DNA from: Candidatus Bathyarchaeota archaeon
GTDB lineage: Archaea; Thermoproteota; Bathyarchaeia; 40CM-2-53-6; RBG-13-38-9
DNA length: 64,000 nucleotides
Reading direction: 5' to 3'
Assembly: GCA_963807605.1 (NCBI GenBank)
Contig: CAWECG010000003.1
Location: 1,056,001 to 1,120,000 of the forward strand
The translations under genes were made by a program, and so were the position numbers. Below are positions 23,025 to 27,313 of the stretch, in pieces. The notes under the pieces are model-generated. The model was not told the DNA's origin. It did no database searches and saw only the letters and a list, made by a program, of their open reading frames with translations. The number at the start of each line of letters is the position of its first letter. The first letter of the stretch is position 1.

Positions 23025-23170
23025 CCGCCGCGAGTACACTCAACAGTTAGGTTGCATAGGTTAGAACCGGTTTGTTGCTCTCTCGGGTCTGACTCTATCT
23101 ATGTAACTATCGCCAAGGAATTGCAGCCCAAGATCGCACTAAGAGTATATACTGGTAGTTCACCCCGCGC

Positions 23171-24296
23171 GAGCTTCTTGCAATATTATATTTTCTGTGT
23201 TAATTTTGTGAACTGGATTGGTGACCGCATTTTATCGATGTGTCCGTGCTTGATCGCGGATAAGGCAGTTGCCAGTAGAGCCAGCAGACAGAGAAGTACA
23301 TGTGATATGACGTTTCTTAGGCCGCGTGTTCGAAGCTGAGACAATCCGAAGTGTGTCTTGAGTCTTGAGAATGTTCTCTCCACTGAGGATCGACGTTTAT
23401 ACAGTTGTTTCAGACGGGCAGGTCCGTGTGAGCGGAACTTCCGGTCGATTCGTAGAACCTGTTTGCCCTTCATCTGGTTTCTAGGGTAAGGTATGATTGG
23501 TTCTATGCCCATAGATCTTGCCTTGTCTCTGAAAGCTTCGCTGGAGTATTGTGAGTCTGCAGTCATGCTCTTCCACCTATGTTTCTTCTTCAATGCTTTA
23601 TGGAGGAGGTGGGGTGCAACTTTTTTCTCATTTACATTTGCAGGTTCTATGGTGACTGCCCGCGGCATCTCGCTGATGGTGTCTACAGCAAGGTGTATGC
23701 CGTAGCCTAAGATCACGTTTCTACCTTGTTTTCGTAATCTGGCTTCAGAATCGGATAATCCACACTGGGTATTGTGAGGATCTCTTCGACTGTAAGCTTT
23801 GATGAATGTGACGTCTAACGCTAGGATTTCAGAGTCCAGAATGTCCATGTGGTCAAGCTGTTTGATCAGACGGTTCATGAGGCGGTGAAATCCTTGAGGG
23901 CCTATTCTACGTCGAAACCTCAGAAGTATTGATGGGTGATATGGATTCTCTGATTCCTTGATGTCGCAGAGTTTGCAGAGTTCACCGTCGCTCCATAGAA
24001 GTCGGTATAGTTCCTCGTAGCTTTCTATGTGTCTTAGCCGTTTGACAAGCTCTGCTTTGAACATTCCAAGTAAATTTCTATGGGGTCTGCCGACGCTGCT
24101 TCTTCTTCCATAGCTTCTTTCTAAGACTTGTTCTACAAACGTTAAATCCAAAGCCTGAAACAGATCATACAGAGCCTTACACTCGCTCACTTCTTTTTCA
24201 CCAGAAACGGCATGAGTGGGTGTAAAGCTCATCGATCTTATGATCAAAAACACGTATACATCTTCATGTTAAGCCCAAGAATATTGCAAGAGGCTA
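23171..24296 (-). mobile_element. IS5/IS1182-like insertion sequence (1126 bp), 17-bp TIR, GCGC TSD
   Basis: TIRs GAGCTTCTTGCAATATT / AATATTGCAAGAGGCTA (15/17); GCGC at 23167-23170 and 24297-24300. Confidence 0.9.
23186..24253 (-). CDS. DDE transposase (DDE_Tnp_1 type)
   Basis: LDVTFIKA, GYGIHL, PANVNE, ADSQY, YKRRSSVERTF, RGL. Confidence 0.92.
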   Translation of the reverse strand: MFLIIRSMSFTPTHAVSGEKEVSECKALYDLFQALDLTFVEQVLERSYGRRSSVGRPHRNLLGMFKAELVKRLRHIESYEELYRLLWSDGELCKLCDIKESENPYHPSILLRFRRRIGPQGFHRLMNRLIKQLDHMDILDSEILALDVTFIKAYSRRDPHNTQCGLSDSEARLRKQGRNVILGYGIHLAVDTISEMPRAVTIEPANVNEKKVAPHLLHKALKKKHRWKSMTADSQYSSEAFRDKARSMGIEPIIPYPRNQMKGKQVLRIDRKFRSHGPARLKQLYKRRSSVERTFSRLKTHFGLSQLRTRGLRNVISHVLLCLLALLATALSAIKHGHIDKMRSPIQFTKLTQKI

Positions 24297-24471
24297 GCGC
24301 GCTACCCAACAATATTGTGGGTACAACCCTTGCCAGAATGATTCTTCAGCACCGGCCTAAGTCGACAGCACGGGTCCGTCCCAAAGCTCCTGGGGTGGGA
24401 TTTGAATGGGAGAGTTAGCTACAGCTTACGTAGTGGTGAATAGCAACGACAGCTGGGAAGCCTCAGCGTCT

Positions 24472-25251
24472 TCAATTGAGCCTCCATATCGCGATCTGTT
24501 CTGTCCTTCTATACTGAATCTTCCTTTCTGCCGCCTCTACTGACAGTGACGAATGCACTTCTCGTATTACCTTCTCAAGCACATCGTCTGGAATGTCAAG
24601 AGTACGCCTGAAAGCACGTTTCTCGATGTAAGACAATCTGTCATTGATGCTTGTCTCAATCAATTCATCTTGAAGGTTAATCAGTTCCGTTGGCGGGATA
24701 GTTGCCAGAAGCTCTCTTTCCTTTCTTCGCCACTCACCGGCATGGATAGACAAAGTATATCCAACCTTTGCCGCGGCTTCTTGAAGAGCTTGCCACATCA
24801 AGTTATTGCCGCCCCCGTACGGTTCGCTATCTTGTTGTTTCCGGACGAGTGCGACGATCTCCTTCGTGACCACGCCGGTAACACTTCGAAAGATTCCGAC
24901 CGGGTCTTCAAATATGTGAAGAACGTGAACGAAAATTGCCGCATCAAACGACCTCGCTTTTATGGGCAAGTGACTTGCATCTGCCAGAATTAGCCTCTTG
25001 ATTCTCTTTTCTCTCGCCCTCTGAATCATGCCTATAGAGATGTCCACACCGACAATCTTGAGATTCCTGTCCTGAAGTGGTTTCGCAACTCGTCCCGTTC
25101 CTACTCCTAACTCTAATATGGTGCTACATCCGTCTCTTGCGAGAATGCTAACGATCTTTTCGACGGTTGCCTTCTTCAGTGGAGTTCTCGTCTCATCATA
25201 AACTTGTGAAATCCTATCAAACTGGGTAGCCGTGTTTATGACTTGGCTCAT
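24472..25251 (-). CDS. Class I SAM-dependent methyltransferase
   Basis: ILELGVGTG, GVDIS..M, ADASHLP....FD. Confidence 0.9.
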   Translation of the reverse strand: MSQVINTATQFDRISQVYDETRTPLKKATVEKIVSILARDGCSTILELGVGTGRVAKPLQDRNLKIVGVDISIGMIQRAREKRIKRLILADASHLPIKARSFDAAIFVHVLHIFEDPVGIFRSVTGVVTKEIVALVRKQQDSEPYGGGNNLMWQALQEAAAKVGYTLSIHAGEWRRKERELLATIPPTELINLQDELIETSINDRLSYIEKRAFRRTLDIPDDVLEKVIREVHSSLSVEAAERKIQYRRTEQIAIWRLN

Positions 25252-25306
25252 TTACCTTTCACCGGGCCGTCATTGATCTGTGCTCATGAAAGAAGATGAG
25301 TTTAGC

Positions 25307-25337
25307 GTGTGTGTGTGTGTGTGTGTGTGTGTGTGTG
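25307..25337. repeat. (GT)15G microsatellite
   Basis: Perfect dinucleotide tract preceded by TAGC. Confidence 0.95.
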
Positions 25338-25628
25338 ACTTCCCTGCCCTAATCAAACTTGCACTGCTGGGTCTCTTACACTTTCCGTCGTCCTACCATT
25401 ATCGGATTTGACAAGTGCGAATGGGTTTAGACAGGGTCCACGTTGAACCCGTTCCGCAGTGCTCGCCTCAGATGCCAGAGTTTTAAACACGCTACTTGTT
25501 ACCTCATGAAAAGTTTTGCTGGCATGGTTGATTGCTCCGCTTGGGGTGGAAAAATTGAACGTGATGACTTGCAATATGTGAAATGGGTGAGGGCGTAAGA
25601 CCTGAGCAATCATAAATGTCAAGATTCC

Positions 25629-25795
25629 ATGATAGAAGTTAAGGATCTGACCAGGAGTTTCGGGACGCTCATAGCCATCAGCAAACTGACTTTTGCGGTC
25701 AGCCAGGCGAAGTCTTCGGTTTGCTGGAGCCGAAATGATGCGGCGTCTTGAGATTGCTAGGAAGCTCATCCATTACCGGAATGTCCTGTTTCTCG
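25629..25795 (+). pseudogene. ABC transporter ATP-binding subunit remnant
   Basis: MIEVKDLTRSFG..GEVFGLL.P, then an internal deletion, then RRLEIARKLIH..VLFL. Ends within Walker B at the CGCGCGCGCG motif. Confidence 0.8.
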
Positions 25796-25803
25796 CGCGC
25801 GCG

Positions 25804-26185
25804 TAGTCTAAGCCTACTATGAGGCCTATTCATCTATCGAAGCTACTAGTTCATGGGGTATATGAGCGTAGAATCTACGCACAAAATCATAGTATGATAA
25901 GCATAGGTTCATAGTGCTTCTAAGCTTCATCAAAGCTTGCTCAAGCTTAACCTAAGCTTAACGCCAAGCTTCCCCAGCTTCAGCTAGAACCATATACGAA
26001 TACAGCTAATATAAGCTTAGGAAGCTTGAAGAAGCTTATCTTAAGCTTATGATAAGGCTTGAAAGCTATGCTTTAGAGGCTTCATCATACTAACTTTAAG
26101 GCTTGATAGTATGCTTTGGGATGATGAAATACTATAACTTTTGATGATGAAACTATGCTAATCATCATCTATAATCATGATTGAA
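25804..26185. repeat. AT-rich element with phased AAGCTT palindrome array
   Basis: AAGCTT at 25922, 25933, 25943, 25954, 25966, 26013, 26022, 26032 and 26043, plus many one-mismatch copies. Outer inverted repeat 25895-25912 / 26147-26164 (16/18). Confidence 0.85.
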
Positions 26186-26191
26186 GCGCGC

Positions 26192-27296
26192 TGGGTTGTC
26201 CCGATATTAGCGTTTTCATGTTAGGTTTGTCCAGTGTGTTATGCTTCTGGTTTTGGTGGGTTGTTTGGTGTTGTGTGAGGCTTCTATGGTGTAGAGTAGG
26301 CATAGTATGCAGTAGCTGGTGTGGATGGTGATGTTTTCTAAGCCTCTTGTTTTGTGATTGTTGAGGGTGAGGTGTTCTTTGAGTGATGCGAAGACGAGCT
26401 CTATGGTTGAGCGTTTCTTGTAGATGCGTTTGAGGTTTTCTGGGCCGTGTGTTTTGAAGTCGCTGGTTACTCTGAGGATGTTTTGTCTTTCAGGGTTCTG
26501 GTTGGCTGGGTAGGGTATCGCGGTCTTGATTTTGTGTCTTTTAGCGGTCTCTCTGAGTCTGTTGCTGGAGTATTGACTGTCAGCGGTTAGCTGTCGGATT
26601 CTGATTGCTGTGGTTTTAACTGTCATTTTGAGGAGTGGTATGCTGAGTTTCTTCTCGTTAGTGTTTGCTGGTGAGATGAGGAAGGCTAGGGGTGTCCCTG
26701 TGTCTGCATCGACTGTGAGGTGTAGTTTGTAACCTAGGCTGTATGTGCGGTAGGCTCTTCCTACACGGGCTTCAGGGTCGCTGAAGCCTGTTCTATTGTT
26801 TATGTTGCGTCTGCTGTAGGCTTTGATGAAGGTAGCGTCCATAGCGACTATCCTGGGTTTTGCTATGTGTTTCTTCAGCAACTTCTTGACCTGTTTGTTT
26901 ACTATGCGTCTTAGTCTTCTTGCGCCTAGCCGCTGGTTGAATCTTGAGAGTACCGTCCTACCGTACGCTGGCTCCTCATATCTTATGCCGCATATGTCAC
27001 GTAGCCTCTCATCATGACATAAGTGGCGTTCAAGATCACGCAGACTGCTCATTCTCAGGTAGCGTCTGGCGAGGTGTGCCTTGAAGAGTCCTAAGGGGTT
27101 TCGTGGAGGTTTACCTGGACCGTCTTGATGATAGCAGCTAACAATGAGGCGTTCAACAAACGATAAATCCAGATTACTCAGCAGTGACTCCAGAGTCTCG
27201 TACCCTTCTATCTGGAATCGCCTCCAAGTAGAAGGGTGTGGGGCTCAAACCATATGGATCTTTCCGTGTCAACTCAAAGAATATCGGGACAAGCCC
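26192..27296 (-). mobile_element. IS5/IS1182-like insertion sequence (1105 bp), 17-bp TIR, GCGC TSD
   Basis: TIRs TGGGTTGTCCCGATATT / AATATCGGGACAAGCCC (15/17); GCGC at 26188-26191 and 27297-27300. Confidence 0.9.
26216..27249 (-). CDS. DDE transposase related to 23186-24253; 5' end disrupted (frameshift or stop near 27210-27248)
   Basis: MDATFIKAYS, GYKLHL, PANTNE, ADSQY, YKKRSTIE. Homology (LDLSFVE..PPRNPLGLFKA) extends upstream of the annotated ATG at 27052. Confidence 0.88.
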
Positions 27297-27313
27297 GCGC
27301 GCTACCCTAAACA

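Follow-up and report, generated by a model that had tools for sequence, protein, structure and literature searches.

Insertion sequences (ISs) of the IS5 family measure 0.8 to 1.5 kb, with a short spacing between the second aspartate and the glutamate of the DDE triad (D-E spacing) and a short target duplication, and those of the IS1182 family are long elements with a long D-E insertion. Some ISs seek out particular host sequences; REP- and attC-targeting ISs are examples. A 64,000-nucleotide stretch of the genome of a Candidatus Bathyarchaeota archaeon (assembly GCA_963807605.1, contig CAWECG010000003.1; the whole stretch is called the window here) carries two ISs, IS-A and IS-B, which belong to one Bathyarchaeia clade of DDE elements of about 1.1 kb with one open reading frame (ORF) each, inserting centrally in GC[GCGC]GC and duplicating the middle 4 bp. 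The genome carrying the window (G000) comprises 2.65 Mb in five contigs (C1 to C5), and its nearest named relatives are Bathyarchaeia. The best overall explanation, which we consider probable, is that the clade targets GC[GCGC]GC scars left where DNA was joined, with an accessory primase and its partner RNA as the candidate writer of these scars.

Anatomy, family placement, and target site of the two elements

Both elements proved to be real, with ends exactly where a preliminary description of this DNA had placed them (Table 1). Terminal inverted repeats (TIRs), a target duplication, and dispersed identical copies, the features expected of a DDE insertion sequence, were all present. The 17-bp TIRs differ between the elements, as that description had claimed (15/17 positions match within an element and 10 to 12 of 17 between elements), and reading of the flanks confirmed GCGC on both sides of IS-A and of IS-B. 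The genome contains 14 full copies (7 A-type and 7 B-type), all within CG runs. The two transposases are 40 to 42% identical and have a complete DDE/YREK center (D147, D233, Y285, R288, E292, and K299) that is conserved in the alignment, with 58 residues between the second D and the E. Judging from homologue lengths, the true start of the IS-A transposase is likely the GTG at 24190. In IS-B, the frame is open, and can be aligned, from an ATA at 27217 onward, which is equivalent in position to the IS-A GTG; this ATA (27215 to 27217) is found in 7/7 IS-B copies and is perhaps a weak start that limits transposase.

The earlier assignment to an IS5/IS1182-like clade holds as a statement of likeness, but no NCBIfam family cutoff was reached. 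Like IS5 family elements (ISfinder; NCBIfam NF033581 etc.), the clade has a single DDE_Tnp_1 ORF in about 1.1 kb, with short TIRs and a short duplication, and the nearest annotated plasmid proteins, at 23 to 29% identity, are labeled IS5 family. The length, the 58-residue D-E spacing, and the 4-bp duplication all fall in the IS5 range. In contrast, the clade scores under all IS5 cutoffs (best, 110 versus 140 bits), and the first TIR base is free rather than the fixed G familiar from IS5 ends. The IS1182 profile gave the best raw hidden Markov model score (127.7 and 118.1 versus a cutoff of 270) but was matched in pieces. Although the clade shares a DUF772 N terminus with IS1182, membership in that family was rejected because a long element and a long D-E insertion are absent (1.1 kb and 58 residues). 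It is far shorter than ISPse1 of the IS1182 family, which measures 1653 bp; 4-bp repeats do occur in that family (PMC3281130, which also informs in part the family ranges given at the outset). IS1272 targets inverted repeats (PMC5678879), whereas the clade targets an 8-bp run, cleanly duplicated over 4 bp, and not a replaced stem-loop. IS4 family elements combine the YREK signature (Y-2-R-3-E-6-K) with a 7- to 13-bp duplication and a length of 1.15 to 1.8 kb (PMC2266710); YREK is present in the clade, but the duplication of 4 bp led us to reject IS4 membership. No solved structure matched the transposase profile. All named genome matches of the clade were Bathyarchaeia, except for one Patescibacteria bin. 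By size and D-E spacing, IS-A and IS-B work like IS5 elements, and they are not filed in a named family.

In order to define the target, the flanks of the 14 copies were considered together with those of 49 distinct full homologues taken from other genomes and metagenomes (foreign elements). The flanks of the collected copies were not unrelated: 4-bp repeats agreed in 13/14 own and 43/49 foreign elements, and 6-bp repeats in only 10/14 and 29/49. A 6-bp duplication was rejected because of this poorer matching, and a 2-bp duplication is excluded by one own copy flanked by ACGC/ACGC. Taken together, the empty sites give the profile GC[GCGC]GC, weakly fringed by T/A or A/C, and the logo of own and foreign copies bears out the previously suggested CG-dinucleotide palindrome with a 4-bp GCGC duplication and strong specificity. 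Runs of at least 7 bases hold 17% of the GCGC sites in the genome and 12/13 of the own targets (P, about 5e-9). The sites are not independent, so this and all other P values for the target and joint tests overstate the evidence. As a control, none of 44 ends of other repeated elements touched a run (0/44).

Two further observations, besides the nonindependence of the sites, count against this account of the target. The flanks are unequal in the own copy at C1:381535 and in six foreign copies, and no empty allele of the IS-A or IS-B site was found; searches of four sediment runs with positions 22600 to 27700 matched only pieces of ISs, tRNA, and methyltransferase. The duplication length thus rests on flank comparison. 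The relative G001 is only 75% alike and too distant for intergenic comparison. The empty alleles expected under the 4-bp model would be CACCCCGCGCGCTACCC and TGAAGCGCGCGCTACCC, and the reconstructed empty sites agree with those proposed earlier.

The 11-mer GCGCGCTACCC does follow the right-hand (+ strand) end of both elements, and it occurs twice in the window, versus 0.33 occurrences expected even allowing one mismatch, and five times in the genome. The longer target of 9 or 11 bases, CGCGCGCTA(CCC), that had been read from it did not stand, for CTACC adjoins the core in only 2/13 own sites, those of IS-A and IS-B in the window, and 1/43 foreign sites. The shared orientation of the two elements is likewise without meaning, because the target is palindromic and TA flanks are equally frequent on its left and right sides (9 versus 7 of 13 own sites and 11 versus 12 of 43 foreign sites). 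Chance accounts for the TACCC tail and the orientation that the two elements have in common; it is exceeded only by the CG core and the weak T/A flank. The alternative that the motif belongs to the element end was tested and ruled out, because 100%-identical copies carry different runs, with five different flanking runs around copies with identical transposases.

The clade is therefore an unclassified archaeal IS group with a sharply defined 8-bp target, documented by >60 mapped insertions, and offers a simple means of studying how a short repeat is read by a DDE transposase. A transposase dimer may bind the symmetric run directly, through the sequence or the shape of alternating GC, and would cut it with a stagger of 4 bases; cut-and-paste chemistry is assumed by analogy with the IS4/IS5 superfamily (PMC2266710). 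No report of an 8-bp alternating-GC target, or of the scar described below, was found in the searched literature, with most subscription journals outside reach.

Stacked elements, in which one IS is inserted in the GC flank of another, were seen at three loci (L309, L320, and L302). A 1199-bp element with 18-bp CATGAG TIRs (L010; G018 C168), only 30% like IS-A and IS-B, also lies in a GC run, in the CGCG register; one copy was seen.

The GC run as new sequence at DNA joints

The run is far more abundant than expected. GCGCGCGC is enriched 18-fold in the genome (second-order model) and CGCGCGCG 15-fold. Run lengths peak at 8 bases (198 runs, versus 127 at 7), and 85% of runs have A/T flanks. 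Although the genome is 82% coding, 83% of 8-base runs and about 80% of runs of 7 to 9 bases are intergenic. The runs are clustered in islands, and their distance to starts or stops is not fixed. Enrichment and an intergenic location were likewise seen for CA/TG runs of 8 or more. General microsatellite slippage was rejected because AT and AG repeats lack such a peak. Among 60 relatives counted for exact 10-mers, the run is patchy, with 16 to 119 in 12 genomes and 0 to 5 in most others. More distant Bathyarchaeia also carry it, and the same 8-base peak was found in G001, G052, and G066; the count in one Thermofilales genome (G080) was dismissed as GC-content noise.

HIP1 of cyanobacteria, also a highly iterated 8-bp palindrome, lies largely within genes and is tied to a methyltransferase. 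The run here differs in its avoidance of genes, its variable length, and its position at joints. A HIP1-like palindrome was rejected on the basis of the variable length, the intergenic location of 83% of the 8-base runs, and the lack of an intact C5 methyltransferase (PF00145) match in G000, where only C5 enzymes were searched.

Comparison with paralogs indicated what the run is. In 102/130 cases, the paralog of the flank continues without the run, usually with not even GCGC at the joint. Paralog alignments break at 85 runs and span 5, compared with 31 breaks and 230 spans at shifted control points (P, about 1e-41 after removal of IS ends, overstated by nonindependence). Paralogous genes are cut at the run in 27 cases and not cut in 9 (controls, 6 versus 190). 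Paralog identity stands at about 0.83 for positions −5 to −10, falls to 0.61 at −1 and 0.44 at +1, and is at background beyond. At five sites (C3:74807, C1:353531, C3:176252, C4:26011, and L033 of G001), the run has replaced a few bases in place, with both flanks in register and in some cases in frame. Because intact paralogs lack the run and some runs replace bases in place, these sequence comparisons show the A(GC)nT run, commonest at 8 bases, to be newly made sequence where deleted, truncated, or captured DNA was joined. The 31 control breaks without a run count against a general rule, as they indicate that the run marks only some joints.

The added bases depend on the old end. At ends in T, A and then GCGC are added (10/11 cases in which the A is new); at ends in A, GCGC or CGCG is added; and at ends in G or C, the added bases extend the alternating pattern. 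The A preceding the run is old in 28/51 cases and new in the others, and longer microhomology showed no excess.

The X-A + linker + T-Y form of these joints resembles T/A ligation, so that an adapter-like linker from library construction or assembly was also considered. The run occurs in independent genomes that come from many studies, other genomes lack it, the runs are clustered in islands, decayed by point mutation, and in frame in genes, and some are occupied by ISs with duplications. The artifact explanation is thus already refuted, with practically no probability left to it. Occupancy by ISs is an independent sign that the scar is biological and old.

A second alternative is that the run is an old host signal, such as a protein-binding, methylation, HIP1-like, or cassette recombination site, that the joints arose by recombination at existing runs, and that the ISs target it as REP or pdif hunters do. 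The run behind the tRNA gene next to IS-B holds a different IS in G001 (L016), one run is conserved between G000 and G001, and 9 to 16 paralog pairs share a run, as this would predict. However, paralogs devoid of a run cannot be explained by recombination at existing runs, which is also contradicted by the in-place swaps within genes with both flanks in register, the variable distance to starts and stops, and the missing C5 methyltransferase match. We consider an inherited signal improbable.

It has also to be asked whether the IS clade itself makes the runs, as excision footprints or through donor-site resection, and then reuses them. ISs and runs co-occur in G000, G001, G002, G047, and G052, and two 4-bp duplications (4+4) left behind would yield an 8-base run. 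However, present insertions enter 8-base runs, so that their footprints would be 12 bases long, and only four such runs were found. Joints mostly lack a prior GCGC (102/130 paralogs), the A is added to the side that faces away from any element, and five IS-bearing genomes (G062, G065, G067, G070, and G075) have only 0 to 2 exact 10-mers. Many run-rich relatives have no IS match, an observation weakened by the loss of ISs from fragmented assemblies. Manufacture of the runs by the ISs therefore seems very improbable. The IS probably exploits the scar rather than makes it, because recent identical copies occupy a variety of runs and hardly any 12-base footprints exist. At least two copies occupy runs that are demonstrable joints (C1:359513 and C5:37838).

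This origin of the target bears on the safety of the landing sites. The proposal that they are safe intergenic sites was upheld insofar as no empty site (0/14) restores a long gene, but it missed that the target is new joint sequence; the target is intergenic because it is newly written at DNA joints. Surviving joints would lie mainly between genes or in decayed accessory DNA, and because of this the elements may gain plentiful, renewed, and harmless landing sites. Since the target is a rejoining mark, the element follows the history of host breakage into dispensable DNA. Site-hunting ISs are already known, and those of the IS1202 family at pdif/dif (PMC10132070) similarly find safe insertion in an abundant noncoding host motif. 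Their targets, however, are functional and inherited, and insertion at pdif is oriented, whereas the target here is a symmetric microrepeat newly made at joints. What is unusual is that the target is a scar instead of a functional, inherited site; the searched literature yielded no safe site of this kind.

Candidate writers of the run

Potential writers were compared with the run across 61 relatives. Ku was rejected because it does not track the run and is mostly found in a run-poor family (f2). PolX, Cas1, and PolY were rejected because none tracks the run, and the PolB count, available for five genomes only, does not do so either. No match to a reverse transcriptase (RVT_1) was found in G000. 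A nonhomologous end-joining operon at C1:589618 to 592231 encodes a LigD polymerase, Ku, and a ligase split into two ORFs, and its Ku is the only one in its family among the genomes searched.

The best candidate, although a tentative one on sequence grounds, is a putatively RNA-templated accessory PriS-like primase. Its gene (C3:72234 to 73127, with a second copy at C1:380300 to 381334; L085 and L093) is followed by a conserved structured RNA. The RNA element is common to 12 loci, with invariant TGAAA and GATGA, and its stem covaries, with compensatory changes in 9/10 pairs. The unpaired middle is GCGCUAAG in six other genomes and GCGCGUA and CGCGCUAAG in the two G000 copies, and the two G000 stretches are complements of two run types seen in that genome. 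The joint rule for T ends agrees with a template that reads GCGCUA, and it matches GCGCUAAG in the six other genomes as well as GCGCGUA and CGCGCUAAG in G000. Of the six genomes with the GCGCUAAG RNA, five are run-rich, with 45 to 108 AGCGCGCGCT versus 0 to 8 in controls. The middle of the second primase copy is replaced by a nitroreductase-like gene, with a copy of IS-A just upstream.

As in telomerase and DRT10 (10.1101/2025.10.16.682844), a short stretch of noncoding RNA would dictate repeat addition, and the arrangement is telomerase-like in having a structured partner RNA with an unpaired stretch complementary to the added word. Those enzymes are reverse transcriptases, whereas the candidate here is an archaeo-eukaryotic primase. 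In PriSL primase-mediated microhomology-mediated end joining (MMEJ; PMC12019639; PADT, PMC3333859), an archaeal primase also joins broken ends and leaves small indels; that process uses existing microhomology, and the parts of these sources consulted describe no fixed added word or partner RNA.

The accessory primase would copy the short unpaired stretch of its own downstream RNA, so that the host adds a self-complementary GC tail to broken 3′ ends, and any two ends could then pair. That a primase copying its own small RNA rejoins breaks through such self-pairing tails, and that an IS lineage evolved to recognize the scar as its only landing site, is a possible scenario that we put forward with reserve. 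Under the same scenario, and with no greater assurance, the scar-recognizing lineage would date back at least to the divergence of IS-A and IS-B at 40% identity. If a primase and its RNA do write the run, one of the most abundant groups of sediment archaea would possess an undescribed route of repair that follows telomerase-like logic.

Several results argue against the primase. The family is whole in only 3/61 relatives, with fragments in three more, and was undetected in eight run-rich genomes (for example, G004, G010, and G052). One genome with GCGCUAAG (G087) has only one exact 10-mer, and template-swap predictions failed, in that genomes whose RNAs have other templates (G031, G085, and G086) lack the other scar predicted. 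The absence of the family from many run-rich genomes would be expected if IS targeting is as described above and no RNA takes part in writing the runs, which could instead arise when a self-paired GC oligomer is ligated to A-ended breaks, when another genomic run is copied, or through a core enzyme, for example PriSL. The A that is old in 28/51 joints, without an excess of longer microhomology, is compatible with this, and in Saccharolobus, PriSL has terminal-transfer and end-annealing activity (PMC12019639). However, core enzymes are universal and the run is patchy, and an RNA-free writer leaves unexplained why a rare primase is accompanied by a covarying RNA that carries, in an unpaired stretch, the exact complement of the letters added. 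We regard writing without RNA as unlikely, if by no means negligible.

Surroundings within the window

A free junction motif elsewhere in the window, as previously noted, was borne out by CG runs at 18354, 25794, 27877, 31292, 31318, and other positions. IS-A and IS-B do not form a composite transposon, and the methyltransferase gene between them is not cargo, because the TIRs differ (10 to 12 of 17 alike) and each IS has its own intact duplication. IS-B adjoins a tRNA gene, 17 bp past the tRNA 3′ end. This tRNA was missed by the default scan, and its lengths and sequences vary in related metagenome contigs. At L016 (G001 C343), the different IS of the clade that lies in the run right behind the same tRNA gene is in the opposite orientation.

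Table 1. Positions of IS-A, IS-B, and neighboring features in the window
Feature	Position	Strand	Comment
Free A(GC)4T scar	18354..18361	.	Paralog C3:300182 runs on without the run; paralogous gene truncated here
IS-A target duplication GCGC	23167..23170	.	
IS-A, 1126 bp	23171..24296	-	5 copies with identical transposase and 2 of an 86% isoform in genome
IS-A right TIR, 17 bp	23171..23187	+	
IS-A transposase, DUF772 + DDE_Tnp_1	23186..24253	-	D147/D233/E292 with Y285-R288-E292-K299
IS-A left TIR, 17 bp	24280..24296	-	
IS-A target duplication GCGC	24297..24300	.	
S-Adenosylmethionine (SAM) methyltransferase between IS-A and IS-B	24472..25251	-	Not composite-transposon cargo
Free (CG)5 run, unoccupied target between IS-A and IS-B	25794..25803	.	
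IS-B target duplication GCGC	26188..26191	.	
IS-B, 1105 bp	26192..27296	-	3 copies and 4 of an 89% isoform in genome
IS-B right TIR, 17 bp	26192..26208	+	
IS-B transposase frame, DUF772 + DDE_Tnp_1	26216..27217	-	First ATG at 27052
IS-B left TIR, 17 bp	27280..27296	-	
IS-B target duplication GCGC	27297..27300	.	
tRNA gene with introns	27314..27426	-	Hand reading, Ala(UGC) with two introns; ARAGORN with introns, Val
Two free runs 18 bp apart	31292..31327	.	Paralogous DNA or gene stops at each

Other repeats were noted in the window. A (TG)15 tract at 25308 to 25337 follows TTAGCG, which resembles the start of a GC run. A degenerate repeat patch rich in AAGCTT and ATCATC lies beside IS-B at 25900 to 26180, with relatives at C1:134769 and C3:74128. 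A second repeat family, at 3193 to 3202 and 5285 to 5330 and at about 90 sites genome-wide, consists of tRNA-3′-end look-alikes (from the T-loop to CCA) or of a TGGTGAG core whose outward arms are (CA)n, (CCA)n, or (CGA)n. No extra PolB match was found near the sites of this family and solo Cas1. The family possibly represents casposon-like or integrase attachment (att) arrays. It is found mainly in genera g1 to g3 and in G045, often near solo Cas1 genes or fragments (window, about 1686 to 2354; C3:803495 to 804703; G002 C17; and G045 C50).

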